Source: Narcine bancroftii (Eukaryota). From it: 64,000 nucleotides of DNA. Below are positions 1 through 55,171 of this stretch, piece after piece; positions within the stretch are counted from its first letter, which is position 1, and each line of letters opens with the position of its first letter. The notes under the pieces were generated by a model. The model made no database searches and was not told the DNA's origin. It worked only from the letters and a program-made list of their open reading frames with translations. The stretch spans positions 4,898,001 through 4,962,000 of the forward strand of contig NC_091477.1 in assembly GCF_036971445.1 (NCBI RefSeq), read 5' to 3'. The translations under genes and the position numbers were made by a program.

Positions 1-60
1 GCGGTCGTTGCTGCCTCCCATTGTGGCGTTCTCTACCAATAAGAAACGATGACGTCGCAA
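1..60 (+). promoter_or_regulatory. Divergent CSE-like Pcdh promoter (TTGTGGCGTTCTCTACCAATAAG) plus CRE-like TGACGTCG
   Basis: 21-43 aligns with TTGTGTCGCTGTCTACCAATAAG of the downstream paralogs; lies ~220 nt upstream of the ATG at 255. Confidence 0.7.
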
Positions 61-254
61 GGGATCTACCCACACCATAATTATCAAACACAGTCCAGAA
101 TCTCCGACAAAGAGACGATGTGACTGGGCTAACAACATGAGACAAGCGAAGTCCTGTTTGTTTGATGAGTTGATTTACACCCTTGGTCGGGTCGAACGAG
201 GTAAACGAATCGAGTGCTTCTGAATAGGATGCAGATACATTGTATATTCAAGCA

Positions 255-2654
255 ATGGCGAATGCGCATTGCACCGAAGCATATTTGTTATATTCAATTT
301 TTCTCGCCAGCTTGGTTCTTGGACAAATAAATTACTCCATTCCCGAGGAATCGGAAATCGGATCCTTTACCGGAAACATTGCTGAAGATTTGGGGATAAA
401 GCTTCGTGAACTATCCGACCGAAGGCCGCAACTGCTCCAACGTGAGACGAATCATTATTTCGAGTTCAATATGCAAAACGGAATTCTATTTGTCAGCAAA
501 AGAATCGACAGGGAAATGCTTTGCTTGGAGGTCTCTATCTGTTCTATATCGTTAGATATTGTGCTGGAAAACCCATATGAAATATTTCCCCTTGAAGTGG
601 AGATATTAGATATAAATGACAACTCACCGATTTTCCCAACCGACGTTATTTCTTTGCAGCTCCCTGAAATACTTGCTCCGGGAGTCCGCTTCCCTCTCGA
701 GAGCGCGCATGACCGAGATGTTGGTTCATACTCCATCGCCAGTTACCATCTTAGTCATAATGAATTTTTCAGCCTTCAAATTCAGGAAAGAAAAGATGGA
801 AGAAAAATCGCTGAACTGCTTTTGGAGAAATCCTTAGACCGCGAAAAGAATCCGTCTTTTGAATTAATATTGACGGCTGAAGATGGTGGGATCCCATCAA
901 ATTCCGGTACGAGTAAGATTTTTATTACTGTTACAGACATAAATGATAACGCACCTGTTTTCGATCAAGACATTTATAAGTTAAGCGTGTTAGAAAATGC
1001 ACGACTTGGTATGTTACTGATCACATTAAACGCTATTGATTTAGACGAAGGCCCAAACGCCGAGTTTAAATATTCCTTCAGTAATTATGCCTCTCAAAAG
1101 GTACGGGAGCTATTCCATTTGGATGCTAAAACAGGAGAGGTCAAAGTTCAAGGTTTACTAGATTTTGAAACTGCACACGATTATGAGCTTGATGTCCAGG
1201 CTATGGACAACCTTCCAAATGTGGGACATGCAAAGGTTCTGGTGAGCATAGTTGACGTGAATGATAATGCTCCCGACATTAAGCTGGCGTCAGTAATGAA
1301 ATCGATTCCAGAAGATGCAGCAGAAGGTATTGTCGTTGCTATTTTCGGAGTAACTGACAGGGATTCTGGAGAAAATGGGCTCGTTCGCTGTCAGATTCCT
1401 ATGGATATGCCATTTAAGCTGGAAACGACTTTTTCTAATCATTATAAGATAACGACCAGCAAGAAACTTGATCGCGAAACAATTTCACAGTACAACATAT
1501 CCATTTCGGCATACGATGCTGGAATGCCCTCTCTCACTACAATTGAAACGATCACCGTTTCAGTTTCGGACGTAAATGACAACATTCCGCAGTTTGCCCA
1601 GTCCACGTATGATGTATATCTGATGGAGAACAATGCCCCAGGCGGATCTGTTTTCTCTGTTTCCGCGTTGGATCCTGACTTAGAAAAGAATGGGGATGTC
1701 ACCTACTCTATTTTGGATAACATGCCGCAAAACCAGCTTCAGCCATCTTATTTTGCAATTAACTCGAAAAGCGGCAACATATTTGCTCTGCGTTCCTTTG
1801 ACTATGAACAATTGAAGAAGTTCCGCTTCACAATTTTAGCTCAGGATGCCGGGTCCCCGTCGCTAAGCACCACTGCTGTTGTGAGGATTATTATTTTGGA
1901 TCAAAATGACAACCCACCATTCATAATATCTCCGTCTACGTGGAACAGTTCAGCGTCATTCGCAATGGTGCCGCGTTCAATACCCCCCAGCTACTTAGTC
2001 GCCAAGGTTATTGCAAATGACGAAGACTCCGGGCAAAACGCACGACTTTCCTTTGAGATTATTGATGCCTCCGATATCAATCTTTTCACCGTGGGGCAAC
2101 ACACTGGGGAAATCAGAACTACTCGGACTTTAACGAAAGACGACTCTGCAACACAAAAATTGGTGGTCCTGGTAAAAGATAATGGTCAACCAAGTCTCTC
2201 AAGTACAGTTACAATCCATGTCTCATTCACAGAGAACGGCACAGGAAATCCATCAGAGCGTTCAGAAAATCAGAAAAATGTGGACTATTACCCAGATCTT
2301 AATATATATTTAATTTTAATTTTTGGATCAACTAGCCTCATATTTCTCCTTATAATCATCTTATTGGTTGTCATAAAGTGCAAGCAAGATAGAAGCAGGA
2401 ATATTTACCATAGATCGTCAACTTATTGTTGTTGTAAACGAAGTAATTCCAATCCCGTCCTTCATAGAAGACCTGTCATAAATGAGTCCCAAAATTATTA
2501 TGCAGGTGGCCAGATGTTGGCTAAATCAGACCCTTATCATTATACTGTTCGATTATCGCCGGCTTCATCCAAGAGCGATTTTCTATTTCTGTCGAATTGC
2601 CAGCCAACACTAACGTTGAATGATATTAGCACTGACAACTCAGTTGGCAAATAG
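255..2654 (+). CDS. Clustered protocadherin variable exon 1 (distinct paralog class; no canonical donor at end)
   Basis: Signal peptide, YSIPEE start of EC1, six cadherin repeats (DRE, DxNDNxP, AxDxG), TM segment, cytoplasmic YHYTVRLSPASSKSDFLFL; first ATG at 255 (ORF track starts on TTG at 240). Confidence 0.95.
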   Translation: MANAHCTEAYLLYSIFLASLVLGQINYSIPEESEIGSFTGNIAEDLGIKLRELSDRRPQLLQRETNHYFEFNMQNGILFVSKRIDREMLCLEVSICSISLDIVLENPYEIFPLEVEILDINDNSPIFPTDVISLQLPEILAPGVRFPLESAHDRDVGSYSIASYHLSHNEFFSLQIQERKDGRKIAELLLEKSLDREKNPSFELILTAEDGGIPSNSGTSKIFITVTDINDNAPVFDQDIYKLSVLENARLGMLLITLNAIDLDEGPNAEFKYSFSNYASQKVRELFHLDAKTGEVKVQGLLDFETAHDYELDVQAMDNLPNVGHAKVLVSIVDVNDNAPDIKLASVMKSIPEDAAEGIVVAIFGVTDRDSGENGLVRCQIPMDMPFKLETTFSNHYKITTSKKLDRETISQYNISISAYDAGMPSLTTIETITVSVSDVNDNIPQFAQSTYDVYLMENNAPGGSVFSVSALDPDLEKNGDVTYSILDNMPQNQLQPSYFAINSKSGNIFALRSFDYEQLKKFRFTILAQDAGSPSLSTTAVVRIIILDQNDNPPFIISPSTWNSSASFAMVPRSIPPSYLVAKVIANDEDSGQNARLSFEIIDASDINLFTVGQHTGEIRTTRTLTKDDSATQKLVVLVKDNGQPSLSSTVTIHVSFTENGTGNPSERSENQKNVDYYPDLNIYLILIFGSTSLIFLLIIILLVVIKCKQDRSRNIYHRSSTYCCCKRSNSNPVLHRRPVINESQNYYAGGQMLAKSDPYHYTVRLSPASSKSDFLFLSNCQPTLTLNDISTDNSVGK

Positions 2655-8799: not shown

Positions 8800-8826
8800 A
8801 AATATATATATTTAACATTCTGCAAT

Positions 8827-10310
8827 TCTTTTTCTTTGGCTTGGCTTCGCGGACGAAGATTTATGGAGGGGGTAAAAAGTCCACGTCAGCTGCAGGCTCG
8901 TTTGTGGCTGACCAGTCCAATGCGGGACAGGCAGACACGATTGCAGCGGTTGCAAGGGAAAATTGGTTGGTTGGGGTTGGGTGTTGGGTTTTTCCTCCTT
9001 TGCCTTTTGTCAGTGAGGTGGGCTCTGCGGTCTTCTTCAAAGGAGGCTGCTGCCCGCCAAACTGTGAGGCGCCAAGATGCACGGTTTGAGGCGTTATCAG
9101 CCCACTGGCGGTGGTCAATGTGGCAGGCACCAAGAGATTTCTTTAGGCAGTCCTTGTACCTTTTCTTTGGTGCACCTCTGTCACGGTGGCCAGTGGAGAG
9201 CTCGCCATATAATACGATCTTGGGAAGGCGATGGTCCTCCATTCTGGAGACGTGACCCATCCAGCGCAGCTGGATCTTCAGCAGCGTGGACTCGATGCTG
9301 TCGACCTCTGCCATCTCGAGTACCTCGACGTTAGGGGTGTGAGCGCTCCAATGGATGTTGAGGATGGAGCGGAGACAACGCTGGTGGAAGCGTTCTAGGA
9401 GCCGTAGGTGGTGCCGGTAGAGGACCCATGATTCGGAGCCGAACAGGAGTGTGGGTATGACAACGGCTCTGTATACGCTTATCTTTGTGAGGTTTTTCAG
9501 TTGGTTGTTTTTCCAGACTCTTTTGTGTAGTCTTCCAAAGGCGCTATTTGCCTTGGCGAGTCTGTTGTCTATCTCATTGTCGATCCTTGCATCTGATGAA
9601 ATGGTGCAGCCGAGATAGGTAAACTGGTTGACCGTTTTGAGTTTTGTGTGCCCGATGGAGATGTGGGGGGGCTGGTAGTCATGGTGGGGAGCTGGCTGAT
9701 GGAGGACCTCAGTTTTCTTCAGGCTGACTTCCAGGCCAAACATTTTGGCAGTTTCCGCAAAGCAGGACGTCAAGCGCTGAAGAGCTGGCTCTGAGTGGGC
9801 AACTAAAGCGGCATCATCTGCAAAGAGTAGTTCACGGACAAGTTTCTCTTGTGTCTTGGTGTGAGCTTGCAGGCGCCTCAGATTGAAGAGACTGCCATCC
9901 GTGCGGTACCGGATGTAAACAGCGTCTTCATTGTTGGGGTCTTTCATGGCTTGGTTCAGCATCATGCTGAAGAAGATTGAAAAGAGGGTTGGTGCGAGAA
10001 CACAGCCTTGCTTCACGCCATTGTTAATGGAGAAGGGTTCAGAGAGCTCATTGCTGTATCTGACCCGACCTTGTTGGTTTTCGTGCAGTTGGATAATCAT
10101 GTTGAGGAACTTTGGGGGACATCCGATGCGCTCTAGTATTTGCCAAAGCCCTTTCCTGCTCACGGTGTCGAAGGCTTTGGTGAGGTCAACAAAGGTGATG
10201 TAGAGTCCTTTGTTTTGTTCTCTACACTTTTCTTGGAGCTGTCTGAGGGCAAAGACCATGTCAGTGGTTCCTCTGTTAGCGCGAAAGCCGCACTGTGATT
10301 CTGGGAGAAT
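8827..10310 (-). mobile_element. Young 5'-truncated RTE-clade LINE (RT domain plus C-terminal Cys/His finger)
   Basis: Uninterrupted 477-aa ORF 8886-10319 with QCGFR, FVDLTKAFD, GVKQGC, LLFADD, YLG and CNRC..SHKRAC; (AAAGA) tail; 10-bp TSD ATTCTGCAAT at 8817-8826 and 10311-10320. Confidence 0.95.
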
Positions 10311-10460
10311 ATTCTGCAATATAATTAGGTTAAATCATAATTGGAAAGAAACGGTATTGATACATTTAAATAAAAGAAATTGACGAGCTCTCAGTAGAAA
10401 GCAAGGTTCATTTATTGATTTTGGTTAATATTTGGAAGGAAGTCAAAATTTATTGTGATC

Positions 10461-10520
10461 TCACTGCAGTTTTCGATGGGACACTCTGAGTTGCTGTCCA
10501 CCAATATGGTGCTGAAAGCC
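10461..10520 (+). promoter_or_regulatory. Decayed CSE-type promoter of the Pcdh pseudogene
   Basis: TCACTGCAGTTTTCGATGGGACACTCTGAGTTGCTGTCCACCAATATGGTGCTGAAA aligns with the intact promoters; CGCT is mutated to TGCT. Confidence 0.75.
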
Positions 10521-10719
10521 AGTCAGAGATCTATCACACATTCTTCCACTCCAACATGAGGACGCAGACATGGAAAAAGGGCCATTCTCCCTTCACTTTT
10601 TTCGGTATCCTGAGTTATTTGATTTATTTACAGATAATCTGAAATATTAATCGAAATGAAGCATTTCCATCATATAAAAATTCATCCCACTGTGCAAATA
10701 TCACAATCAGTGAGCAGAG

Positions 10720-11810
10720 GAATTCTGGACAAGTTTTTATCCTTTGTTCCTGGATCTTTGTGTTGGGTCATGGTCGTTACATATTTTCTTAAGAGTAAAA
10801 ACATTCAACTATCTTTGGAAAAATCACAGAAGGTTTAGGTCTAACCGTGTAGCAACTACTGCGCTGTAGCTTTCGACTTGTTCCTGATCCACGAATACAG
10901 CATTTTGATATCAATCTGATGAATGATTTGTAAATAAAATGATTGACTGGGAAGAACTCCACGCCTAAAGCATGATCTGTTTGCTGCGTTTAGACTTCAA
11001 TTGCAAAACCAGTGGAATAATGTCAGGTGCTCAAATAGCGATATTGAATATAAGCTACAATACCCCTACATTTACACTTAGTACAAAACTTTATATCGAA
11101 TAGAAAGACGATACAATATACTGAAAGTTTGCTGCAGCATATATGATCATGGTTAATTTCAAGAACCATGAGATATACTGGTTATTAAGAACAAAACATG
11201 TATTGTGCATATTTCAGGCATTAATTACGATGCCTTGAGATTCAAAATGAATTCATGCCCGTTTCATGTCATGGAAAAAGATCGTCCCATTTCCATTGGT
11301 AGAGTTACAGCCACAGATTCAGACATAAAAATAAACGACCAAATACGTTGCATCATTCCAGAGAGCGAGGTAAAGGGCGCCCATTAATTCCGAATCCCGT
11401 GTTATCTATTCGAATTGCGCATTTACTGATGTCCTTTTGGACGATTTCAACACAAAATTCAAGCAAGAGATAGTGGAGTTCCTTGACTTCCCAGGAATAT
11501 CGCGAATATCGTTATCCTTGAACAGAACAATAATCCTCCTGTAATTAAAACTCCCGAGTAATTGAAACACAGTATGGCAGTTTTTCTATTTGCAAGCCCA
11601 GGATACCAGCTCTCAAGATCATTGTTTCTAATGTGGACTCTGGTCAGAACGCACGCCTTTTTTTTAAATCAGAGCCCCAATGCAATCAATTCTGGCCTGT
11701 TTACAATCTCCTAAAATTCAGAAATTCGAATAACTCAATATTTAGAGAAAACGATGGAATTATACAAAAGATTATCTTACATTTGAGACACAATGGCTAT
11801 CTAATGTGAG
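10720..11810 (+). pseudogene. Protocadherin variable-exon pseudogene with stops, frameshifts and an EC2-EC4 deletion
   Basis: Fragments GHGRYIFS*E*KHSTIFGKITEGLGL (~GQIRYSIPEELKHG..G.IAKDLGL), FVNKMIDWEEL, ILNISYNTPTF, ISGINYDALRF..SIGRVTATDSD, QARDSGVP, ILEQNNNPPVI, VDSGQNARL, NGY; may extend further 3'. Confidence 0.85.
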
Positions 11811-13859: not shown

Positions 13860-14830
13860 AAGCTGCTCGTGCACATGCTCATGCCTCTCCACTATCCACT
13901 ATGCGGGGCTCCAGACAGTCGTTCAAAGAGAAGCAACACTTCACCTGCGAATCTTTGGGAGTTATGGAAAGCTGCTTGTGTGACCTTCTCTACACCGGGA
14001 TACGAGATACAGGTCGGTGCATCCCTTGATTGAGCGCCTTGACAATGTCCACTGCAAAGGCAAGTGACTCACAGTCGCCAGCCACCTCAATTCCACACCA
14101 TAATGCTGCAGTGACATGTCCGTAGCCTCATGTAGCTTTGAGTTGAGGCCATGCGTAAAATGAACAAATTTGACGGCACAGTTGGTGTTAACGCTATGCC
14201 TTTACAGCGCCAGCGATCGGGACCAGATAAGCATTCTAATACCGTTTTGCCTGTAAGACGTTTGTACGATTCCCCGTGTCTGCGTGGGTTTTCCATAGGG
14301 CTGCAGTTTCTTCTCACCATTCAAAACGTATCGGGAGTGCAGGTTAATAGAGTGCAAATTGGGCGGCACGGGCTCATGGGTCGAAATGGCAACATTCCAT
14401 GCTGTATATATGTCTAAATTTAAATACAAAAAATAAAAATCTTGTCAGTCTTCAATCGGCATCAATATCGTTCTCTTCAACTTCCGGTAAACACCCCGCC
14501 CCGTTCCCTTGCTTTCCTTTATCCTTCTGCATTCTTTCCTCCCTTCCCACTCTCTCTTGCCCATTACTCACACCTTCCTTCCTGGAGCTCCGCATCTTTT
14601 ACCTTCCTTTCTTCTATCAGAGCATATTTGTCAGTCCTCTGCCCCTTCCCATCACCTCCATTCTCTTCCACCTCCAAACACTATTTACCCATCACAGCTT
14701 CTTCTTCGTAGGTTGCTTTATTTTTGGCATTAATGATGAAGCATCCTTTTCCAATACTTTTACTGGTTGTTGTTGTACATGGATGCTGCGTGATCTGTTA
14801 TGTGTTCCATCACTTCTGTATATTCTTCGA
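13860..14830 (+). mobile_element. Penelope-like element 3' relic (GIY-YIG remnant plus pseudo-LTR), interrupted by a SINE
   Basis: KQHFTCESLGV..CDLLYTG resembles the PLE GIY-YIG region; resumes at ~14445, then a pyrimidine-rich tract and a TGATGAAG/GGATGCTGC pLTR relic. Confidence 0.6.
14174..14440 (+). mobile_element. tRNA-derived V-SINE/HE1-like SINE
   Basis: GGCACAGTTGG..CAGCGCCAGCGA head; central TTTGTACG..CCCCGTGTCTGCGTGGGTTT V-domain-like core; A-rich tail. Confidence 0.65.
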
Positions 14831-15371
14831 CGTATAAAGAAGAAAATACGTGTTTCTTATTTTACACGATGCAAAATTCAACAAAGCCGAGTATCATCAA
14901 AAAGGTTACATCATACGATTGAATGTCCAACCAAACTAAAATGTAAAACAGAACATATTTCTACCATAAAATTAACCTACTCCAATTTCAAAACAAATGA
15001 AAGGTTAAAATACGTCAAAGTGCAGAATATAAACCGTTTGTTTCACTTATTATTTGAAGAAACATATATTAGAAATCTAAACGCGAAGCAAGATGTAAAA
15101 TGCCTCATTATGTTTATCTTTGCTCTATAACGTACGTTGCTTGACCTGCTGGGAGACTCCAACAATGTGTTTTTAAACAACTTTAATTATTCAACGAAAT
15201 TTTCCATAACACACAATATAAGATGAAGAAAATCTTATCCCTTTCGTAATGGTAAATGAAGACGAATTCACGAATGAATTTTACCAGTCACACTTCAAAC
15301 TGCCTGGACAATTTCTGGATAAAACGATTTCATATTAAAGTTTCAGCTGGAGTTCAGATTTATTTACATTT

Positions 15372-15500
15372 TCACTGTAGTTATAGGCTGAGACTCTTTG
15401 TGTCGCTGTCTACCAATAAGGAGGTGAAATGCAGCTTGTGATCCACCACCCATCCCCCAATACTAGGGGAAGGAAGCAGAATAATGGCGGTGTGTGAGCG
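15372..15500 (+). promoter_or_regulatory. Pcdh promoter: CSE (GACTCTTTGTGTCGCTGTCTACCAAT from 15392), CCACCACCCATCCCCCAAT block, AATGGCGG (YY1-like)
   Basis: Near-identical block upstream of each intact paralog; contains the CGCT core known from clustered Pcdh promoters. Confidence 0.9.
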
Positions 15501-15639
15501 AACGCACAAAATCATCTCGCCAGATGAAATTAATTTTTCTGCTTACTTCCTTCATTGACTGTCTTATTTCAGATATGATCCAAAATAATATCAAGCATAA
15601 CAACTTTAGATGTTTGATATAATGGAATCTGGAAATGAA

Positions 15640-18087
15640 ATGACAAATGCAAGCATTTTCCGTGTGCTTAAACGGTCAGCCCTATCATCCATCTTGCTCC
15701 TTTGTGCGTGGAAACTGGTTTTCGGGCAGATTCGTTACTCCATTCCTGAAGAATTGGAGCACGGTGCGTTCGTCGGAAAAATCGGAAAAGACTTGGGCTT
15801 CAGCATAGAAGAGCTATCAAGCCGTAAATTCAGATTAATATCAGAAGCTTCAAAACAATATTTGGATGTAAATCGCTTGAATGGGATCTTATTTGTAAAT
15901 GCAAGAATCAACAGGGAACAGCTATGCGGCCAGAGTGATACCTGTGTGCTGCTCATGGAGGCGGTCGCTGAAAACCCAGTGGAGCAGTACCGTATAGAAA
16001 TTGTTATTTTGGATATAAATGATAATTCTCCAAGTTTTTCAAACAAAGAAATTCGTTTAGAGATTACAGAATCCACCATGCCTGGGGCTCGTTTTCTTTT
16101 AGAGCGTGCCCACGACCCAGATGGGGTAAACAATTCGATTCGAACATATCAGCTCACGCCAAATGAACATTTTACTTTAGACGTACTAAGTCGAGGAAAT
16201 TGGATATCACCCGAATTAATTGTAAACAACTTTCTTGACCGGGAAATACAAACGAAGCACCTTTTGTTGTTAACAGCTCTAGACGGCGGGACTCCTCAAA
16301 GATCAGGTACAATTCATATATCTATTATTATCTTGGACGCAAATGATAATCCACCTGTCTTCGACAAATCGTTGTACGTTGTTAACGTAAAGGAAAACGT
16401 GCCACTGAATACTTTATTGATCAAGTTAAACGCAACTGATATGGACGAGGGACAGAATGCAGAGATAGTTTATTCCTTCGGCAGTTACAATGAACCAAGA
16501 ATTAATGAAATATTTATGATTGATCCCACATCCGGAGAAATCAATCTCAAGGCAAGTTTGGATTTTGAGGAAGCAAATGTGTTTGATATTGATGTTCAAG
16601 CTAAAGATGGAAACTTGCAGCCGTTATTTGCGCACTGCAGCGTGCGTGTGCAGATCACAGATATCAATGACAATGCTCCAGATTTAGCTGTAAATTCTAT
16701 TGCTGATACGGTCCCTGAAGATACTCCGAAAGGAACTTTAATCGCGTTGATTAGTGTGACTGATTTGGATTCCAATAGCAATGGATTGATCGACTGTTCC
16801 ATCTCACATGATCTCCCCTTTGACCTGATAACTTCCTTTCAAAATTCTTACAGACTCGTCACGAATTCAATATTGGATCGAGAGAGTATTGTACAGCATA
16901 ATATAAATATAATTTGCAATGATCGTGGAATCCCACCATTATCTTCCAGCCGGAGAATTGTGGTCAATATCTCAGATATAAATGATAATATGCCACGCTT
17001 TACGCAGCCTTCGTTTATGGCCTATGTACCGGAAAACAATGACGTGGACAGTTCCATCGGGTCTGTGACGGCTTTGGATTTGGATATTGGCCGAAATTCA
17101 AAGTTGTCCTACAGTATTCTGGAAAACCACATTCAGCCAGTTCCGGCATTATCCCTTGTCTATATTAACTCAAACGATGGCAGCATCTACTCGAAAAGAT
17201 CGTTCGATTATGAGCAACTTAAAAGTTTTCAGTTTCACGTCCGAGCTCAGGATGCCGGATTACCATCACTTTCCAGCGATGTTCCTGTGCAGGTCATTGT
17301 CTTGGATCAAAACGACAATCCACCGGCAATAATATATTCCAAGAGAAACACCAATATTCGTGTTCCACGATCTGCCGATCCAGGATATTTGGTAACAAAG
17401 ATAGTTGCTTCCGATGCCGATTCTGGTAAGAATGCGCAACTTTTCTATCAACTAAATCATGCCAGTGTTCCAGGAATTTTTAAAATTTCACGGAGTTCAG
17501 GAGAAGTAAGGAGTGTTCGGCGTTTGAAGGATAGCGATGCGATCACACACAGACTAATTATCCAGGTGAAAGACAATGGATCCCCCGCTCTTTCTGTCAC
17601 GACTACCTTAACTTTGACAGTAATTAAGGAAGACACACCCTATCAACCAGATTTTAGCGAACCACACCAGGATTTAAAAGACACGCAAGAATTCAGTTTA
17701 TATCTAATTATTTCATTGGCGGTAACATCTCTTATTCTGCTAGTCATTATCATTGTCTTGGTGGTTGCAATTTGCCCAACAAGCAGCCCTGCTGTTTCAG
17801 GCGGCCTGTGTTCTTTTGCTCATTGCTGCTGCACCAAAGATTTGGAATATCAAAGTTCGATTGCTCAACAGCAACATAAGCCCGATCTCCACATCTTCCC
17901 AAGTGTGCTCCAAGTTCACGGCAATGGGTCCCTTTCAGACACATACCGTTATAAAATTCGGTCAGCACCCGAATCGGCTGCAATGTTTTTCACCGCATTA
18001 AGTCCACAGATGGGAAGGAGTTCAGGAATAGAAACCAGATATGAGCCACAGGACGAACCTGGGACGAGGAATATCTCATCAGACATG
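15640..18087 (+). CDS. Clustered protocadherin variable exon 2
   Basis: Six EC repeats, TM, Cys-rich juxtamembrane segment; phase-0 donor ATG/GTGAGT at 18088 (unspliced ORF 15610-18186; start could be 15610 or 15622). Confidence 0.95.
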
Positions 18088-18634
18088 GTGAGTAATGTCA
18101 GCAAGACCTACGACAGCAATGTTAAAATGTCTCAAAGGCAGACATGTTGTTTTGTACATTCGCCATTTGTTACTTTATCTATGTAGCATTTGAGATTCCT
18201 AAACTAATCGATCTGATTATCGTATTTTATGTAAATGTTCCATTCACTGACAGGCAATTAAAGGGGTAAGAAAAAAATATAGATTCTTCAAAACAGATAC
18301 TGCAGGTAAGTGTACCTCTCAGGTGTGCGCCTTCAGTCCCAGGGAGAGTGATTTCGGCGATGAATATTGGAGACGATCTTGGTAATAAAACATTAGACAT
18401 TGCTGAATACATTAATTAACGTATAAAACAAAAACCAGAATCTGATGTGCACGAAGAATATTTGCAACTTTTGCAGTATTTTTCATGACGGTGTAATCAT
18501 TTTGATTTGCTGTGGTTTTTCACTTCTTTAGAAACATTTTGGAACAGACTGAATGGAATTTCATCCGTTCCCAGTCACTCATAGATTCCCAAATCACCAA
18601 ACTACTATAAACAAGGAATGTGTGTTCTTAATAA

Positions 18635-18840
18635 AAACATGGAGATACTGGAGCAACTCAGCCGGTCTCGCAGCGTCCTTGGGAGGTAAAGATATATCGA
18701 CGTTTCAGGCCTGAGCCCTTCCTCAAGGTATGAAAAATTGAGGAAGGGCTCAGGCCAGAAACGTCACTAATATAGCTTTACCTCCTATGTCTGTCTTTTT
18801 ACTCCAATCACAAGGTCTGCAGGCGTTTGTATTTCACTCG
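18635..18840. mobile_element. Palindromic Penelope pseudo-LTR-derived element with hammerhead-like cores
   Basis: Inverted arms 18682-18726 and 18738-18785; each contains TTGAGGAAGGGCTCAGGCC(T/A)GAAACGTC. Confidence 0.65.
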
Positions 18841-20488
18841 AGATGTTCTTAAGTTGGCAAAATTGGTTGAAAGAAGATAAAATGAATCATTATGGTGTAG
18901 CTGGGGAAAAACGGATATGCATTGTGTATATAAATCACTTTCAAATAAAAGCATCAAATATCATATATTGTCGAACATAAAGTTAGTATCAAAGCTTTAA
19001 TTAATGGCGATAAACGTCGAATCATTGCATCTTTTTTCGTTGAATGTTTAAATAACACATTTGAAAAAAAAAAGCGGTTGATATTTTTACATACAGAGAT
19101 TTGCGTTTGCCATACTAATTGATAACCCATTTCAACGATCAAATAATCACAAATATTGGTATTTTAATATAACCTGGGCATGGCGTTTATTGCCTATCGC
19201 TTAATGGCTCTCGAAAAAAGACAGTCGTCCGCGTTTGTGAAAGTGCCGTCGCTGCACTACTGTTGGGAATTTCTGGATACTTATTTAACAAATAAATAGA
19301 TATAAATCAGAATTACTAGTTCATCAGTGGAAATGCCAGTGGTATTTCTCCTTGGATTTGTCCTCGTGCATAAATTTGGGAAATACTCGAAGCCCTTGCG
19401 GATTGATGACGTGCATCTGATCTACGTTTTGGATTATAATTTTGATAGCAAGCATTTGCAAAGAACAAACAACTCGAAGTATAGTCCAGCTGGAGGACAA
19501 TGCCTGTCATATCGTAAATCACTTTCCATTCATAAGTTTAACACTGTGCGCAGTAGAACATGCTCCTAACAAACCTGACCACATCCTCCGCCCTGCTAAA
19601 TATCCACCAGCTCAGCTTCACCACGGACTGCATGGAATCGTCAGCGATGTTTGTGTCCTTTCTCTTCTCTCGTTCCACTGAATTACAAACGATCCAAAGG
19701 TAATCTCCAAACACGTTAATCGCTTGTTCTCGACGAAGACCATCTTTAATATTGTTATGCTTTTGGATCCAAATAATCCTTCACGCAACTAACAGTGCAG
19801 ATGAGTAGTTTGAGTTTCAAATATTTTTTTTTTGCTTCCACCACCCCACTTTTCTCGCCTGAACGATCATTTCTTTTTATGCAGGTATGCCAAACAGGAC
19901 CATCAAATATTGTTATTTGCGGCGGTGCGTAACTATGTTGAAATTCTTCATGGATGTTCAATTAAGTCATTGGATCTCCTATCACTGTGTCGTACGACTG
20001 TTTATTCTCCACACATGTGTTGATTTGATAACTTTCAGACATTTTCCTGAAATGTATTGTCCCTCTGGTTTGGGATTCTTTCAGTGGTGTGAAGATTATG
20101 GGGCAGTTTCTCTGGTCACAATCTGTGTGTTTGGATTTGTTGATACCGATCTTTCCTGTCTGTAACATAACCCATTGCTCCCATCTATTTTTCCGATTTT
20201 GATGAGAGGACATAAATCTGAAATTAAGTAGCTGTTTCTATCTCTGAGTATTTGGAATATTTTCTGCATTCTGTGCAAATGTTCGCTATCAGCAAAACTA
20301 ATTATCCTTTTATCTGCTGACCGAAGTACAAGTTACCCTTCACAACGGACTCCTCGGCTTTTTTTAAGACATTGGATTGCAGTTGTTGATTGGATTACAG
20401 GAAAGTATCTATTTTCGAGCTCAACTAAAATTCTAGCAATGGCAACAAGCTACCTTTTGGCAGCAATTTGACGCATGCATCTTCCATT

Positions 20489-20936
20489 CATAACCATATA
20501 ACCATATAACCACTTACAGCACAGAACAGGCCAGTTCGGCCCTACCAGTCCATGCCGTAACAAATCCCCACCCTCCTAGCCCCACTGACCAGCACCCGGT
20601 CTATACCCCTCCAGTCCTCTCCTCTCCACGTAACTATCCAGTCTTTCCTTAAATGTAACCAACGATCTCGCCTCCACCACGTCTGCCGGAAGCTCAATCC
20701 ACATCCCTACCACCCTTTGCGTAAAGAAATTTCCCCTCATGTTCCCCTTATCATTTTACCCCTTCAATCTTAAACCATGCCCTCTAGTTTGAATCTCCCC
20801 CACTCTTAATTGAAAAAGCCTATCCACATTTACTCTGTCTGTCCCTTTTAAAATCTTAAACACCTCTATCAAGTCCCCCCTCAATCTTCTACTCTCCAGA
20901 GAAAAAAGCCCTAGTCTGCACAACCTTTCCCTGTAA
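20489..20936 (-). mobile_element. CR1-clade LINE 3' end
   Basis: (TAACCATA)n tail; RLGLFSLESRRLRGDLIEVFKILKG..TRGHGLRL; same family as 39680-41288. Confidence 0.85.
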
Positions 20937-21485
20937 CATAAAGCTCCCTTTCTTTTTGAAAATCCATGTGATAAATAGGAGGGATTCACAGATAATTGTT
21001 ACATTACTTTGGCGTGCAATTTAGCACAATCAAGTGTTTTCTCTTCAACTGATCATCTTCTCCAGCATTTTCCCAAACTGAACAGATCGTAAGGCGTCTG
21101 ATATTTCAGTAAAATGGTGAAGTGAGGCAAAAACGTAAAGACATTTTAAGGAAGCTTTCAATCAAAATGTCAACAATAAAGTTAAAATTTAAATAGATGT
21201 TTTTGAACCTCGTTAAAATTGACTATTTTGCAATGAACAATGTACATGGAAATGTAATTTTCATTTTCATCAGAGAAAATGCAAGATCTTCCTTTCCAAA
21301 AATCTCGCAAGGAATGTAAATGATGCCCTCAGATGAGTAGTATTTTATCCTAGACCTTGACCAAGTTACACGTGGGTGTGGTGAGCATAAGAATACCTTA
21401 GAAAACTCGTTAAAGTTCTTTGCTTATCTTTATGAAAATTGGTGCATCTTTAATTTTGTTCAGCTGGAATTCAGCATTAATATTC

Positions 21486-21615
21486 TCAGTGCAGTTATAG
21501 GCCGAGACTCTTTGTGTCGCTGTCTACCAATAAGGTGGTGAAATGCAGATGGTGATCCACCACCCATCCCCCAATCCTCGGGAAAAGAAGCAGAATAATG
21601 GCGGTGCGTGTGCGA
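21486..21615 (+). promoter_or_regulatory. Pcdh promoter with CSE (21506-21531)
   Basis: TCAGTGCAGTTATAGGCCGAGACTCTTTGTGTCGCTGTCTACCAATAAG...CCACCACCCATCCCCCAAT...AATGGCGG. Confidence 0.9.
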
Positions 21616-21712
21616 ACAAAGCGAACCTGCTTTTCAGGCAAATTCCTTTCTCCAAGTTATTTCCTACTTTGAAAAAAATTGCTTTGGTTAGCATTTTACT
21701 CTACTTAGGACA

Positions 21713-24163
21713 ATGACACAAACGTGTGGTTCCCGTGTGCTTGGGAAGTCAGCGATTTCATCCATTTTACTGCTTTGTGTGTGGAACCTGGTTTATGGAC
21801 AGATTCGTTACTCCATTCCCGAAGAAGTAGAAATCGGCACATTCGTCGGAAAAATCAGAGAAGATTTGGGTTTGAGCGTGAAGGAGCTATCAAGCCGTAA
21901 ATTCAGAATTGTGTCGATCGCGTCCAAACGATATTTGGATGTGAACCGCCTGAATGGAATTTTATTCGTGAGTGAAAGGATTGACCGGGAACAACTCTGT
22001 GGTCAGAGTGATAACTGCGTGTTGCTCGTGGAAGCGGTGGTCGAAGACCCTGTGGAGCAGTACCGTGTGGAAGTTGAGATTCTCGATGTTAATGATAATT
22101 CTCCGATTTTTCCGAACCGAGAAATTCGTTTGGAGATCCCGGAATCCGTGCTGCCTGGCGCACGCTTTCCCTTGGAGCGCGCACACGATCTGGACGGGAG
22201 AAATAATTCTGTTGGCTCATACCAGCTGGATGCAAACGAACATTTCACGTTGGACATACAGAGTTCGGGGAAGTGGAAATTACCCGAGTTAATACTGGAG
22301 AATATTATGGACCGAGAGAAGCAGTCGGTATACAATTTATCATTCACCGTTACTGACGGTGGTCACCCAGAAAGGTCAGGTACCGCTCATATAGTTATTA
22401 CTATCTTGGATGCGAATGATAATGCTCCTGTTTTCCAGAAATCTCTGTATAATGTTAATCTGAGTGAGGATTTGCCTTTAAATTCTTTGGTGATTAAGCT
22501 TAACGTTACCGACTTGGACGAGGGTACGAACAGCGAGATCGTTTATTCTTTCAGTAGTAACAATGAGCCAAGTTTAACGGAAATATTTATGATTAATCCG
22601 AACTCAGGAGAGATTCGTACAAAAGGAAGTTTGGATTTTGAACAGTCTAGCGTTTATCAGATTCACATTGAAGCGAAGGATCGAAGCCAGCATCCGCTCT
22701 CTGCGCACTGCAACGTGCGGGTGGAGATCACAGATGTGAATGACAATGCTCCTGAGTTGTCTTTAAATTCTATTTCCAGTAGAATCAGCGAAGATGTTCC
22801 GATTGGAACTTTAATCGCGTTGTTCAGTGTCACAGATCGGGATTCCAATAAAAATGGACAGATGGACTGTTCTATTTCTCCTAATGTCCCTTTTGATCTG
22901 AAATCTCCCTTTGCAAATTCTTATCGACTCGTCACAAGTGCAATACTGGACAGAGAAATCGCTGATCAACATGTAATAATGTTAACATGCAAAGACCGCG
23001 GGTCCCCTCCATTATTTTCCAACCGAAACATTATCGTTAACGTTTCGGATGTAAATGACAATGCGCCACAATTTACGCGCTCGTCCTACAGGGCCTACGT
23101 GGCGGAAAACAATGAACCAGGCAGTTTCGTTGGGTCAGTCACAGCTTTGGATTATGATATTGACCGAAATTCACAGCTAGTTTACACTCTTTTGGACAAC
23201 CCGATTCCTCCAGAACCAGTATCTTCTTATCTCTATGTTAACTCAACCGATGGCCGTATCTATTCGAAAATATCATTTGATTACGAGCAAATTAAGGCAC
23301 TTCGGTTCCACGTTCGGGTTCAAGATGCCGGATTCCCATCGCTTTCCAGTGATGCTGTGATACAGGTCATTGTTCTGGATAAAAATGACAATCCGCCCAC
23401 CATCCTAACACCGCAACCAAACAGGAATCCCACCTTAAAAGTCCCCCGATCTGCAGTTGCGGGGTATTTAGTAACGAAGATTACTGCTTCCGATGCAGAT
23501 TCTGGCAAGAATGCACAACTTTCTTATCATCTGAAACATTCCAGTGCTTCGAGTCTTTTCGTAGTTTCTCCTACTTCTGGTGAAGTAAGGAGCGTTAGGC
23601 GGATCAAGGATAGCGACGCCTCGACACAAAGACTCGTCATCAGGGTAAAAGACCATGGTTATCCTGCTCTCTCTGCTACCACCACGTTAACTTTGACAAT
23701 CGTTAAGGAAGACACAACTGATCCGCCGGAACTTAGTGGCCTTCATCATGAATTAAACGATGAAGAGCAATGGAGTTTTTATATAATAATTACTTTGGGA
23801 ACAACGTCTCTTCTTCTTCTGGTGATTATAATTGTTCTTGTCGTTCTGATATGCCCAATGGGTGAGGGTACTGCTTCAGCCAGTATTTGCCCTTGTGCTA
23901 ACTGCTGCACCAGGGAACTGGAATACCGGAACACTAATCACAATCTTCATATTTCTCGGGAATCTTATCTGCTTCCTAGTTTACTTGAGGTTCGTGGCAA
24001 CGGCTCCCTGACTGACACTTGCCGGTATAAAATTCAGTCAGCTCCTCAACCAGTCGAAATGTTTTTCACACCGTTCAATTCAGAGATGGCAGACGTTACT
24101 GTAAAAGATACGAGATATGCCCTACAGTACACCACAAAGGCAGCGAAGAACTGGTCAAATGAG
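21713..24163 (+). CDS. Clustered protocadherin variable exon 3
   Basis: Six EC repeats, TM; phase-0 donor GAG/GTAAGT at 24164. Confidence 0.95.
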
Positions 24164-24667
24164 GTAAGTCTTGGGAACCAAACATAACGCGTAAATTCTA
24201 CAATCTTACAAAATCCACAGTTGCTCTCTAGTTCCTGATTTTTTTTGGTAGCATATACTATTTCCTGAACGAGTCCATTGACAGCATTGATGTAATTCTG
24301 GATTGCCCAACTTTCGTTTTTGCCGTTTTGCAGTAACTATTTCCGCAAAATGAAATCGAGTTTTAAAGATGAACTTGTCCCCGTCTCTCTTACTGATGAC
24401 AATAGTTGGAATGCCGCTGTTGGGACAGCACAATGTAAATATGCCAAGAGTGCACTGGACAGCGGAATATTATTATTTTATTATTTAGCAGGTAATAAGA
24501 CCAAACATTAGACAATGATGAAATTTAGACGAGCGATAGAGTTACTTATTTCGGTTTGATGTTCCAGTTATTCTGATTTCCTTTGGAGCAATTTAAAATA
24601 CACCGAAATGAATGGCATCAAACCATTGCAACTAGTTATTTTCGAGGTCGTTGGTGAACCTATCGCG

Positions 24668-25075
24668 TTCAAGCTCAAGTTCGCTTATTGTCACATGTAT
24701 CGAAAATACAGTGATTGATTTTGTTTTGCGAGCGAATAAGTGTAAGGCGTAAGTCAGTATATTAGCATAAAAATGCTGAGTTACAGAGAATTATCAGTTG
24801 GTACACAACATAGTCAATTATGCGATACATCCAGGAGTCTGATAACTGCAGGAAAGAAACTGGTGCTACACGATCTCACAATCGTCAATCTTCTTCCTGA
24901 CGTGAGTGGGAGTGGTGCGGGGAGGGGAGGAGAGTGCGGTCAGTCTTCTAATATGTTATCTGCATTTACAATGCAGCGAGTGTTGTACATGGAGTCGATA
25001 GAGGGAAGGATGGATTGAATCCCGTGTCAACCCTCTGCGGTTTCATGAAATCTCTTACGGATCCGTTCCCCTTCA
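24668..25075 (-). mobile_element. Degenerate L2/Rex-like LINE 3' relic
   Basis: TCAAGTTC..TTATTGTCACATG tail and GGAAAGAAACTG..CTTCTTCCTGACG segment similar to 63430-64000. Confidence 0.4.
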
Positions 25076-30465: not shown

Positions 30466-30601
30466 GAACTCGGCGAACCATCTCTTCAACCGATCATACT
30501 TCAACTCTATTGCCATATTGAAGGAATTATTTTGGGTGTCAGGAACGGTGATAACGATAAGAACAATTCCTGAGGTATTTGCAATCTACCCTAAAGACGT
30601 G

Positions 30602-33049: not shown

Positions 33050-35974
33050 GTGAGTGTTGATGAATATACGTAGTGTGTTTGTAATATTGTAAAGCACTTC
33101 ATAACATTTCACATACCGCTTCACGTTTATGCACGTCCAACTTATCGAGTACTTACTCTAAATATCAATTATTTGATATTTTAAACAGATCCCTTCACAA
33201 AATTCTTGGTTTCATGAGTGAAATAGTTTTACGTGGCTTAACCCAGCAAGAAACACCGAATCAAATTTTAAATTAACGTTTCATATCACACATCCTTCAA
33301 ATCACATGAACATTTAGAAAGTCATCTTTGCTTCGATTTTGCTTCTATGTTCGTTTACATGTCAACATTTGTTCCTTGAGGGTGATAAAATAGCAGGTAT
33401 GTGTTAAAACGTCGCTAAAAATGATAAATGCCACGTACAGTCAAGAATTGCTACTAAGCTAGATGTATGTGATCACGAGTCAAAGGTAGACCAAATATTT
33501 ACATGCTTTGTCATCAGTCGCGTCATCTAGTATTGAGAACGCATGCAGTAGACCGAACTCTCTGCAAACAAGAGATGAATGAATCACACTGGACTTCACA
33601 ACAGCACTTTGATAATTTAAAAAAGCAAGGCAGTTGGCATTGTGCTTTGTATTTATTCCAGAAAATTTGATTCCTGACATGAATGAACTTTGGCATAGCA
33701 TAAAGCCATTCTTGAAAGCAACGACTAAGACCTGTATAAAATCTCGTAAAGGACTTAAAAGCTATTTTTGCAATAATTCATAGGACCGGAATTAAGTCCT
33801 TTGATTCTGCCACGCTCGTCCATTGTGGCTTTTTAAACCCCATTCTGTAACATTTTTTGGGAAGCTTCCTGTGCTTCTTTGTAAGAACAGGCGCAAACAA
33901 GTTGAACAAGAAAATAGAAGACCACGACCTAATAGAAGACCATGAGCTATGCCAATCGAAATTATGATTTTACTCATTTCACAACTGGGCATTGTCTCGC
34001 TTATTTGGTTCATATAAAGAATTCAGATATCGTTATAAAGTGTTGCTGCTTTAATGATGGTTTTATTACAAATTATTTTCTGATTTACATGGCATATTAT
34101 ACTCTCCCTTCACAATACAACAGATTGTACTTCATCTATCAAGCCTCTATTCCTAACTGAAATATTTCGACCTAGCAATGGTTTAGAAATCCTCCTCTGC
34201 ACTCTGCACAGTGCTATCTTGATCTTCCAATCAACGTGACATCTAGAAGTGTTAGGCGTGGCCCAACGAAACTTTTATAAACGTGCCATTATTTCCAGAC
34301 CCTTGTTTCTTTGGTGTAGATAATGACGTCCAGTTTTCCATGTCACATGTAACATGTACCCCTCTGTGTCTCTCTGGAAGTGTGCACGATTTTCCCCTGA
34401 ATGTTATATCATTTGTTACATTTGTTCTTCTTCGTCTTCATAATATTGACTATGCAAACAAATAACTCTGGACAACATTTTTAAAAAAAAACATTTATTT
34501 CCTGAAAGAAAAACAGGCATTACGATGGACAACGTCAAGCTGAACACAAAGATAATTTCAGATTTGCTGTATCACGTGCAAAATGGAGAAACATTAAATT
34601 AACTTTTTTAAAGGTAGTATATTTAATCGCAAAATGATGTTGACATATTGCATTAGTTCAACTGACCAAAAATATTATGCCACAGATTTTCGTTTTAATT
34701 AGCATCTGATGTCTCTCCTGTCAGTATCTAACAATAGTCGCCCAGCATTGACAGATTTCATTTGCCCTGATATTGCTTTTCCAAGGTCACAATGTCCTGG
34801 TGAAGCGTTTCACCATTTTTCGCATTGACTGCAGCAAGATCGTCGAGGAAGAAGTCCAAATGCGAATGAAAATGAAACTTTAATGACATGTTGAACGTCA
34901 TGGCTCGAAGCATGTTAAAATATGGTAGTAAAATATGGTAGGATGTCGTAAAAATAGGTTATATATTATAAATAGTATGTGATAGAAAAATTCTCGTGTA
35001 TTTCCCGATCAGCATCCCCCAAATCCATAAAATACACCCAAAAGTCTTCAGCAGGCAAAATCTTCGTTGTCCACTGTAATCAATAGAGCAGAACTGAATG
35101 GAAACACTGGCTCAGTTTGGTAAATGAACATACCAGAAATAAAACTGCTGCAATTTCTTTGCTCCCTGGTGCAAAAGATAACTTATATTTGTTATAGTCA
35201 CCGATGTTGCTTTTAGGTGTATATTATGGCACTATTAATTTAGATAAGACGGTTGCACATAGTTTCTCATGCCAATGGTTGGTTTTCAGGAAAATGTTCT
35301 TCTAATATCAATAGGTTAAGCCATTCGTCTATTTTTTCCAATTGGATTTTCAAAACGTTTTTAATGAGGTCTTCCGCAAAGCGTATAAGACCTTGATGAG
35401 GCCCCATCTTGAATAGTGTGTGCTGCTTTGGTCTCCTATCTGAGTAAGCACGTTTTTGCTGTTGAGGTATTAATATAGGCCTTTAACTCCCTCTCCCGAA
35501 TTATCAGTCACTCTTCTTAACCTTCTCCCCTATCACTTCTCAGTTTCTGTCTCTTCTATCCTCTCACCTGTATTGTATCCACATATTACCTCTTACCAGT
35601 AAGCTTGTGCTCTACCCCTTCTTCTTCCCTCCTCTATACGTCTCCATAGCCCTTCCTTTATAGTCAGGCGCCTATCTGTTTTTCATTATTCCTGACGATG
35701 CATGCAGGCCTGAAATGCTGATTACTTTATACTTGCTATGCGACCTGCTGATTTTCTCTCTTGCTTTCTGCACTGGACCCTAGCATCTTCAGATTTCGTT
35801 GGAATGATTCAAGTTGTGTGGAAGCTATTCATTTTTTTTTACCAATTTACATTTCAAATAGGATTGACTAATTGTAGGACTCTGTTTATATTAGGCATAG
35901 GTTGAAAATATATATTTTGTTAATAGACAGAAAGCTGAGGCTCTCAAAACTCAAATCTGATTTTTATCCTGAAC

Positions 35975-36065
35975 TCAGTGTAGTTATAAACAAGGACTCT
36001 TTGTGTCGCTGTCTACCAATAAGGGAGAGAAATTTATCTGGAGATCCACCACCCATCCTCCAACG
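35975..36065 (+). promoter_or_regulatory. Pcdh promoter with CSE (35995-36020)
   Basis: TCAGTGTAGTTAT..GACTCTTTGTGTCGCTGTCTACCAATAAG..GATCCACCACCCATCCTCCAA. Confidence 0.9.
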
Positions 36066-52285: not shown

Positions 52286-52375
52286 TCAGTGTAATTATTG
52301 GCAAAGACTCTCTGTGTCGCTGTCTACCAATGAGGCGCTAAAATGCTGCCAGTTATCAAACCCCCTCCCCCAATA
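52286..52375 (+). promoter_or_regulatory. Pcdh promoter with CSE (52306-52331)
   Basis: TCAGTGTAATTAT..GACTCTCTGTGTCGCTGTCTACCAATGAGG..CCCCTCCCCCAAT. Confidence 0.88.
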
Positions 52376-52588: not shown

Positions 52589-55018
52589 ATGCAAGCATTG
52601 TTTATAGTTTTCCTGCTTTATATTTGGAATATCGTTTATGGTCAAATCCACTACGCTATTTATGAAGAATTGAACCATGGTGCCTTCGTTGGGAATATTG
52701 CTCAAGATCTAGGACTCGACCTGAGAGAGCTGTCTAATCGCAGACTCCGCATTATGTCTGCAGTAAAGAAAAGGTATTTCGAGGTTAATTTAGAGAATGG
52801 CGTTTTGTTTGTGAATGAAGTGATAGATAGGGAGCTTGCATGTGGACAAAGCCTTACTTGTTTTATGAATCTGGAGGTTGTTGTCGAAAACCCATTGGAA
52901 CTCTATCGTATTGAGGTGGAGATTTTAGACATAAATGACAATTCTCCCAGTTTTCCGAATGCCGAGATCCGTTTGGAAATCCTTGAATCGTCGCCACCAA
53001 GAACTCGATTCCTTCTTCAGAGTGCCCAAGATCCAGACCTGGGGGTCAATTCTGTCCGCATTTATTATCTCAGCCCGAATGAACACTTCGCATTAGAAGT
53101 GCAGAATAGCGGGGACGACAGCAAGTTTGTCCACTTGATGTTGGAGAATTACCTGGACCGGGAACAACAGGCCATTCATCATTTACTTTTGACCGCCGTT
53201 GATGGGGGTACGCCAGTACGAACCGGTACAGCCCAAGTTATCGTGTCTGTCCTCGATGTCAATGACAACTCCCCAGTATTTGGTCAGACCTTCTATAAAA
53301 CCAGTTTAATGGAAAATGTGCCAAAAGGCACCACAGTTATCAAATTGAATGCTACCGATCTGGATGAAAGCACAAACGCAGAGATAATGTACTCTCTCAG
53401 TGACCTTACTCCAAGCCAAGTCCGTGAACTATTCAGTATTAATCCGCAGACTGGTGAGATCGCAGTCAAGGGAACTATAGACTTTGAAGAAGCCAGAACT
53501 TATGAAATTATAGTGGAGGCTAAGGATAAAGGTCCATTTGCACTCCCCGTACACTGCACTATCTTCATTGACGTCAGTGACGTCAATGACAATGCCCCCG
53601 ACATGATTTTGATGTCAGTATCTAATTCAGTCCCCGAGGATGTGCATGTTGGAACGGTATTAGCTTTAATAAGCGTTAATGACCAAGATTCTGGGGACAA
53701 TGGATTAATTAGCTGTATGATACATCCCAACATACCGTTTGAACTTAAATCAACATTTAAAAATTCCTACACCGTAATTATCAAGCAGGTTCTTGACAGG
53801 GAAACCATATCTGAATACCAAATTGGAATCATTTGTCAGGACTCAGGATTACCTGCTCTATCCACAAATAAAACTATTCAGGTCCAAGTAACCGACGTAA
53901 ACGACAACCCGCCGCGTTTTGCGGATAAAATTCACACTGCATACGTAATGGAAAACAACGCTTTCGGGGCTTCCATCTGTTCAGTCTCGGCTTTTGACCC
54001 TGACTTGGGTCCCAATTCTCACCTGTCCTATTCTGTTCTCCATAGCCAGATTCAAGGCTTGCCCATCACGTCATACGTCTCCATCAATTCAGAGAAAGGG
54101 GTCATCTTTTCACAACGCCCTTTTGATTATGAACAACTCAAAAATTTTCAGATCCATGTTCACGTGCAGGATGCTGGATTGCCTCCACTCAGCTCTAACC
54201 ATACGGTGAACGTGGTCATCTTGGATCAAAATGACAACGCTCCTGTTATCGTTTTCCCGTTAACAAAGAATGGTTCAGAAGTCACCATTCCACGAGGCGC
54301 AGATCGTGATTATCTGGTGGTCAAGGTTATCGCTGTCGATGCAGATTCAGGGCAAAATGCACGATTGCTTTATGAGCTTGTCCGAGCCACCGACCGGAAT
54401 CTTTTCGCGATGAAGACTAATTCGGGAGAAGTGAGGACGATCCGTCAAATTAAGGAGAGAGATGTCACAACACAAATGATGATTATATCGGTAAAAGACA
54501 GTGGACATCCACCGTTGTCAACCACCACCACCATCACAGTCTCAATCGTAGACAGTACCGAGGACGTCGTTCACGCCGTGACATTTATGCCCAGAACCCC
54601 CGAATATCCCTCTAGTGCAGCCCTTTATATAATCATATCATTGGGTGCAATCACATTAACACTCATGCTCGCCTTGATTGCGCTTGTATTTACAGTCTGT
54701 CGCAGTGCAAATGTTGATGAAGAGTGGTGTTGGTGTATTGAACACAATGACGCAGATACAATGTATCGAAATCACAATCTTAATTTTCAAACAGTACCAG
54801 ACTCCAGTTTAATTAAAAATGTTATCGAAGTGCGTGGATCTGGCTCACTCGCTCAAACGTACTGCTATACACTTCGGACAGGTCAAGAATTATTTCAAAG
54901 CGATTCCAAGATTCTTCCACCCTCAAGTGCAACACCTGTCAGATACAGATCTGACGCGGCGAACAGTTGCTTTACCAACTGGAATGTAAAAGCTAACACC
55001 ACAATTCTCGCCACTGAA
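52589..55018 (+). CDS. Clustered protocadherin variable exon 7
   Basis: Short signal peptide, six EC repeats, TM; phase-0 donor GAA/GTAAGT at 55019. Confidence 0.95.
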
Positions 55019-55171
55019 GTAAGTGACGTGATAATGTCCGTACTTTCCAAAGATTCTTTGACCAATTCCTGGTTTCTTTTAATGAAATACTGAGAAATAT
55101 GTCATTTTGCACAATGCAAGGTAAACACCGAATATTGCAAATTATTCCAGATATGAAAAAGTGATTAGAAA

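Follow-up and report, generated by a model that had tools for sequence, protein, structure and literature searches.

An epsilon/mu protocadherin junction in the genome of the ray Narcine bancroftii

The stretch of 64,000 nucleotides from the ray Narcine bancroftii analysed here (contig NC_091477.1, positions 4,898,001 to 4,962,000; hereafter the window) very probably covers the junction at which the epsilon genes end and the mu variable exons begin in the clustered protocadherin (Pcdh) locus, which would work much as the mammalian cluster does. Both subclusters are known from the elephant shark (Yu et al. 2008, as cited in PMC2764143 and PMC4978886). A first-pass annotation of the same sequence, which recognised a cartilaginous-fish cluster, was right on this point. 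Its subcluster boundary between 2.7 and 10.4 kb is also real: since exon 1 falls with epsilon and exons 2-7 with mu in our tree, this boundary is the epsilon/mu junction published in 2008. The three sequence groups of the window are one epsilon gene and two branches of mu.

Exons and promoter elements of the array

An ORF scan of the window recovered seven plus-strand frames of 799-892 aa (255-2654, 15610-18186, 21713-24187, 30395-33073, 36230-38725, 42894-45296 and 52589-55093). These tandem same-strand exons each encode a signal peptide, six EC repeats, a TM segment and a variable cytoplasmic part, and the three scanned with Pfam (exons 1, 4 and 7) all show an N-terminal Cadherin_2 domain, five Cadherin repeats and Cadherin_C_2. 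The likely starts of exons 2 and 4 are at 15640 and 30602, the latter being the start of the public model P0127 as well. Phase-0 donors lie at 18088, 24164, 33050, 38708, 45282 and 55019 for exons 2-7. Searches with seven constant-region tails found no constant exon in the window, the 9 kb downstream of exon 7 hold no further variable exon, and Rfam gave no matches. A LINE reverse-transcriptase fragment occupies part of the epsilon/mu interval on the minus strand (8826-10334, RVT_1, E=1e-29), with 575 bp that are 99.5% identical to 60108-60682.

A 26-nt promoter element (CSE) precedes all eight units, that is, the seven exons and a pseudogene, always on the plus strand. For exons 2-7 it lies at 15392-15417, 21506-21531, 30358-30383, 35995-36020, 42614-42639 and 52306-52331, with 0, 0, 0, 0, 1 and 1 mismatches to the mu element; the relic in front of the pseudogene (10480-10505) has 5, and the epsilon-type variant of exon 1 (15-40), where CCAAT follows the core, has 7. 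Because five Markov controls gave no match under 7 mismatches and one at 7, the case for the exon 1 element depends in part on where it lies, 228 bp before the ATG. The core reads CGCT in six of the eight units (exons 2-7), CGTT in exon 1 and TGCT in the relic. No CSE matched a CTCF consensus with up to two mismatches, and the two matches in the window are both outside exons. Neither a second CSE-like site nor a run of conserved synonymous sites pointed to an exonic CTCF site of the alpha type; only 2 of the 67 fourfold sites shared by exons 2-7 are invariant.

The first-pass annotation had described seven intact same-strand variable exons plus a pseudogene, each with its promoter element, and six phase-0 donors, all of which the ORF, promoter and donor scans confirmed. 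Its patterns of EC3/EC4 cysteines, EC2 loops and short signal peptides are as described on inspection, and exon 1 does stand apart in promoter core (CGTT versus CGCT) and in lacking a donor within its ORF.

One epsilon gene and two branches of mu

Judged by its sequence, exon 1 (255-2654, plus strand, 799 aa) is an epsilon ortholog of the single-exon type, the last epsilon gene, with an ORF that ends without constant exons. It is 54% identical to epsilon9 and epsilon2 and 73% to the last epsilon exon of the fused skate model P0387, and in a 44-row tree it nests among the named elephant-shark epsilon2, 3, 5, 9 and 13 with 100/100 support; an AU test rejected the joining of its group to mu (p=0.0001). 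The ORF has no internal donor, the sole donor-like site being after the stop and out of phase. A constant region is absent from all 16 epsilon-like tails listed, that of exon 1 included, and no epsilon-clade protein among those compared carries the mu constant region. In PMC2764143, the subclusters listed with constant exons are alpha, gamma, delta, mu and nu; epsilon is not among them.

Exons 2-7 follow directly after the epsilon gene and group with the named mu3-mu7 (99/97) in the same tree, in which named mu1, mu2, delta and nu are absent; database searches returned no protein named delta or nu. All are on the plus strand. Exons 2-5 are placed with mu5 (100/99), but they could sit nearer mu1 or mu2, given that these two are missing from the tree. 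They comprise exon 2 (15640-18087), exon 3 (21713-24163), exon 4 (30602-33049) and exon 5 (36230-38707), the last forming a separate elasmobranch branch of the mu5 lineage. Exon 6 (42894-45281) is the ortholog of mu6 (61% identity, 100/100), and exon 7 (52589-55018), that of mu7 (63%, 100/100), is the best conserved of the set and probably ends the series of mu variable exons. Exons 2-4 stem from a batoid triplication within the mu5 lineage. At fourfold sites these three differ by 0.40-0.67 in 17 of 18 domain comparisons, the exception being EC5 of exons 2 and 4 (9/36, too few sites to call), and there is no sign in this comparison of strong EC5/EC6 homogenisation.

Database models attach the mu constant region to exon 4 and to orthologs of exons 2, 5, 6 and 7; for exon 3, no spliced ortholog occurs among the proteins compared. 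Model P0127, identical to exon 4 over 817 aa (100%), is joined to this region by database annotation, and for the same exon P0290 and P0291 likewise run on into it. Orthologs P0142 and P0161 of exon 5 also carry it. A loose pattern for the constant start found 21 matches over 312 proteins, 20 of them the true mu start, all in the mu clade, and one false. In three runs presumed to be RNA (X1-X3), exon 4 is covered by low-depth contigs; over 14600-34500, the repeat-dominated contigs listed showed neither a joint nor a loose end at the donors of exons 2-4. Fused skate models keep the arrangement of the window: P0387 crosses the boundary in the same order (epsilon, exon-1 ortholog, mu), P0372 contains orthologs of exons 2, 3, 4 (three copies) and 5, and P0295 has those of exons 4, 4, 5, 6 and 7 followed by the constant region.

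Where the first-pass annotation counted at least three paralog groups, there are two subclusters, as relatives of exons 2-5 and of exons 6-7 join the same mu constant region. One might still take exons 2-5 and 6-7 as separate subclusters with different constant exons, so that the window would span three, one of them undescribed. They do fall on separate branches (99/97 and 98/97), share only 46-49% identity, and differ in EC2 loop and signal peptide. Yet the elephant-shark genes mu3-mu7 sit on both branches and have a single identical constant region in common, a single skate species has orthologs of exons 2, 5, 6 and 7 (P0371, P0161, P0294 and P0209) that are all annotated with the mu constant region, and exons 5 and 6 have no constant exon between them; we regard a third subcluster as highly improbable. 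Just as improbable is the reading of the exons as plain orthologs of alpha, beta or gamma genes, in spite of automatic database names such as “alpha-C2-like” or “gamma-C5-like” and of a mu constant region that matches Cadherin_tail (Pfam) and aligns loosely with gamma tails. Alpha and gamma rows fall outside in the tree (97/94, with two rows per bony group from possibly chimeric gene models and no reliable beta row), and AU tests rejected mu with gamma (p=0.006), the rejection of mu with alpha being borderline (p=0.0499). At the cis interface, L555 is kept in all seven exons and the R560 of EC6 that marks Pcdh-alpha occurs in none, although surface delivery is not predictable from cis-interface residues alone (PMC12337331). 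The first-pass view that these are not simple alpha/beta/gamma orthologs thus stands for alpha and gamma, and for beta the tree offers no reliable row. Its further idea of a lineage-specific system gives way to one common to cartilaginous fishes: the elephant shark has the same subclusters, and the tree makes the exons clear orthologs of the characterised epsilon, mu5, mu6 and mu7, an outcome that the annotation itself had named as counting against its view.

A different doubt is whether the mu exons form a uniform stochastic set, or whether exon 7 is constitutive or specially deployed, like mammalian C-type exons, with exons 2-6 as the alternate isoforms. Its ectodomain is 88-89% identical to those of skates and 84% to those of sharks, versus 72-78% and 68-73% for exons 2-6, and in skate P0295 no other variable exon stands between its ortholog and the constant region, nor does one appear in the 9 kb that follow exon 7 here. 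Nevertheless, it has kept a near-perfect CGCT element, which is absent from alphaC2, gammaC4 and gammaC5 according to PMC7811963, and it is sister to mu6 and not to the C-like rows of bony vertebrates. We hold such a role for exon 7 to be possible but doubtful, and prefer to see it as one of the alternative mu exons.

A relic promoter at the subcluster border

The first mu exon (10680-11800, plus strand) has decayed, with frameshifts, stops and most of EC2-EC4 missing. It comes closest to the skate exon at the corresponding place (50, 40 and 39% in the three main pieces) and to the shark clade-mate of that exon, P0159, and is likely the ortholog of the intact skate exon. On the minus strand, the relic CSE is overlapped at 10494-10516 by a sequence that fits the non-canonical NRSE/RE1 consensus of PMC2926608 (8-bp spacer) without a mismatch; it is the sole match in the window, where 0.055 were expected, and the canonical NRSE has no exact match there. 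Read on its opposite strand, the mu CSE already comes close in sequence to an RE1 site with an 8-bp spacer, and in the relic the CpG is lost and the match is exact. It is tempting, but rather a long shot, to imagine that at the epsilon/mu border the dead first mu promoter has become a REST silencer, kept to silence the neighbouring protocadherins outside neurons, and that throughout the mu promoters a single element is read by CTCF on one strand and by REST on the other. No paper on a CSE/RE1 overlap appeared by title or abstract start in the literature searched; the tables of PMC2926608 lie outside that search, and the overlap may already be in print.

Proposed working and relation to known clusters

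We propose that exon 1, like a Pcdh-beta gene, would encode an entire receptor in a single exon, and that the choice of a mu promoter would be followed by splicing of its exon to mu constant exons, shared by all and situated downstream of the window, so that the isoforms would differ in ectodomain and have their tail in common. By analogy with mammalian work, a stochastic choice may result from binding of CTCF to the CSE and from methylation of the CpG in it, and homophilic self-recognition from EC1-4 trans together with EC5-6 cis contacts (PMC7811963 and PMC8901172). The alternative exons probably equip each neuron with a surface identity tag distinct from those of others.

As the system and both subclusters were described in the elephant shark in 2008, the core finding adds another species. 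Its comparative value is modest: the epsilon/mu order, mu6 and mu7 are conserved between chimaeras and rays, while the mu5 lineage shows both an expansion and the loss of a member, and the names of these genes in databases mislead. A constitutive mu7 would show how the alternate/constitutive split was achieved in a cluster independent of alpha/beta/gamma, and a working REST site in the relic promoter would show how neuron-restricted expression was solved, again independently. In the literature searched, with subscription journals mostly outside it, no publication on the protocadherin cluster of a shark or ray was found.

With mammalian Pcdh alpha, beta and gamma, the ray array shares the variable exon layout, a CGCT element about 200-270 bp upstream, phase-0 donors with annotated splicing to a common tail (gamma-like), single-exon genes (beta-like) and gamma-like cis-interface residues. 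Unlike the mammalian clusters, its exons are not orthologous by the tree and show no sign of an alpha-type exonic CTCF site or of strong EC5/EC6 homogenisation. With Pcdh-epsilon of the elephant shark, exon 1 has in common the clade of epsilon2-13, the same cytoplasmic end motif, the lack of EC3/EC4 cysteines and the lack of a constant region, but it groups with genes of Mobula, skate and Heptranchias in an elasmobranch branch, for which none of the named epsilon genes compared is a one-to-one partner. The ray mu exons resemble those of the elephant shark in one-to-one mu6 and mu7 in the same order and in annotated constant region, cysteines and signal-peptide types; they differ in that the window has no ortholog of mu3 or mu4 between epsilon and mu5, and in that the mu5 lineage has grown to four intact exons and a relic.

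A known epsilon/mu junction in a ray

Seven large protocadherin-type ORFs occur on the + strand of the window (exons 1-7, at positions 255-2654, 15640-18087, 21713-24163, 30602-33049, 36230-38707, 42894-45281 and 52589-55018), together with an eighth copy, now decayed, at about 10.68-11.80 kb. The domain layout of clustered protocadherins was recovered with Pfam in the three exons scanned (1, 4 and 7). The delta, epsilon, mu and nu organisation of elephant shark is credited to Yu et al. 2008 in PMC2764143, PMC4978886 and PMC7811963, and the locus studied here is an ordinary ortholog of this known cluster.

Protein searches with exons 1, 3 and 7 gave ray and skate proteins as the closest full-length relatives, and a cluster look-up supplied further ones. 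Among all these relatives, the named elephant-shark proteins comprised 10 epsilon and 5 mu (mu3-mu7), with no protein bearing the name delta, nu, mu1 or mu2. The best named match was epsilon9 for exon 1 (54%), mu5 for exons 2-5 (55-58%), mu6 for exon 6 (61%) and mu7 for exon 7 (63%). From 285 ectodomain segments, 107 entered a FastTree overview and 44 an IQ-TREE LG+G4 tree, once near-duplicate rows, excess teleost rows and segments likely to be chimeric had been excluded; some of the bony-vertebrate segments kept may be chimeric. In the 44-row tree, exon 1 falls within the epsilon2-13 clade (support 100/100) and exons 2-7 group with mu3-mu7 (99/97), where exons 6 and 7 pair with mu6 and mu7 (100/100 each) and exons 2-5 sit inside the mu5 clade (100/99); there, exons 2-4 make up a group exclusive to batoids (100/100), with single shark genes as its sister. 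In AU tests, on groups named post hoc from the tree and with only two rows for each bony group, a union of mu with exon 1's group was rejected (p=0.0001), as was one of mu with gamma (p=0.006), and mu plus alpha was borderline (p=0.0499). The subcluster boundary placed at 2.7-10.4 kb by the first-pass annotation is thus real, although it is the published epsilon/mu junction and not a new one, and its three or more paralog groups reduce in the tree to one epsilon gene and two mu branches.

In elephant shark, epsilon1 falls not with epsilon2-13 but beside a conserved gene of ray-finned fishes (AU p=0.013 for a group named post hoc), to whose Amia protein it is 72% identical. This fish gene may be delta, and epsilon1 itself may belong with delta. 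The group includes, besides the fish gene, which is spliced, the unnamed protein model P0112; comparing models P0273/P0244 with P0231 and P0240, epsilon1 terminates in a donor-like read-through.

Promoters, donors and the constant region

A 26-nt promoter element (CSE), whose CGCT core was already noted in elephant shark (PMC2926608), lies upstream of all eight units, with 195-271 bp from core to likely ATG. Mismatches to it number 0-1 in exons 2-7, 5 in the relic and 7 in exon 1; five Markov control sequences gave nothing below 7 and one match at 7. The promoters of exons 2-4 (15342-15503, 21459-21617 and 30332-30500) share 82-85% pairwise identity versus 71-73% for coding sequence. A CRE-like TGACGTC, not found in the mu promoters, stands at 50-56, immediately 3′ of the exon 1 element. 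Phase-0 donors close exons 2-7 (18088, 24164, 33050, 38708, 45282 and 55019), and no in-frame donor was found in exon 1. ORF, Pfam, element and donor scans bear out the exons, relic, promoters and donors first described, and the cysteine, loop and signal-peptide differences reported with them are all present in the alignment. Exon 6 carries another phase-0 GTGAGT at 45120, 162 bp 5′ of its main donor and a possible alternative to it, and is missing the cytoplasmic cysteine cluster of mu6.

Constant exons were not found in the window and fall outside it. Exon 4 runs on into a stretch that matches the elephant-shark mu constant region in the public models P0127 (identical to exon 4 across 817 aa), P0290 and P0291. 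The mu constant start was present in 20 of the 312 proteins compared, all of the mu clade (a 21st pattern match was false), and missing from all 16 epsilon-like tails listed. In PMC2764143 the subclusters given constant exons are alpha, gamma, delta, mu and nu, without epsilon, which is consistent with single-exon epsilon genes. P0127 and P0290 leave the mu constant region midway and end in alternative tails. Three presumed-RNA runs gave low-depth contigs over the beginning of exon 3 and some portions of exon 4, with no donor joint among those listed, a result that is weak in either direction.

The decayed copy and its surroundings

Three fused skate models keep the window's exon order: P0387 has three epsilon exons, the exon 1 ortholog and a mu5-lineage exon; P0372, orthologs of exons 2, 3, 4, 4, 4 and 5; and P0295, those of exons 4, 4, 5, 6 and 7 followed by the constant region. 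Since the top two matches of the pseudogene among 36 candidates are the same-slot skate exon (the mu5-lineage one of P0387) and a clade-mate of that exon from a shark, its sequence likely represents a decayed first mu exon.

The relic promoter contains, at 10494-10516 (-), an exact match to the non-canonical NRSE/RE1 consensus of PMC2926608 with an 8-bp spacer, a spacing reported there for two fugu promoters. It is the sole match in the window, where 0.055 were expected (200 Markov controls). That figure makes the match look more surprising than it is: intact mu CSEs stand only a few changes short of this motif on the same strand, and drift could have produced it.

Two inverted LINE copies (8826-9400 and 60108-60682), 99.5% identical over 575 bp, mark a recent insertion, and one of them lies in the epsilon/mu interval shortly 5′ of the relic promoter. 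Another reverse-transcriptase fragment (40323-41314, -) and interspersed repeats at 20.5-21.2 and 25.2-28 kb attract very deep contig cover.

Predicted function and comparison with known clusters

Exon 1 would encode a beta-like single-exon receptor, and the mu exons would be expressed through promoter choice followed by splicing onto a common tail. Mammalian CSEs are bound by CTCF and silenced by CpG methylation (PMC7811963), and mammalian isoforms make trans and cis contacts (PMC8901172); by analogy, both forms of control may operate at the CSEs described here, and both contacts may be made by their proteins. L555 is kept in all seven exons and position 560 is V, I, T or F, not the alpha-type R (gammaB7 numbering, mapped by motif), which suggests that these protocadherins need no carrier. 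However, cis-interface residues alone do not decide surface delivery (PMC12337331). Exon 5 has an arginine at the equivalent of gammaC3 R558, in the cis interface.

Within the literature accessible to search, we found no published study of a shark or ray protocadherin cluster, and the elasmobranch detail may be undescribed in print. Synonymous divergence gave no sign of strong gene conversion, in line with what is reported for elephant shark. Exon 7 is 88-89% identical to skates and 84% to sharks, versus 72-78% and 68-73% for exons 2-6, and its rate of change among elasmobranchs is roughly half that of the neighbouring exons. Such strong conservation resembles the behaviour of C-type genes, with the difference that exon 7 retains its CSE.
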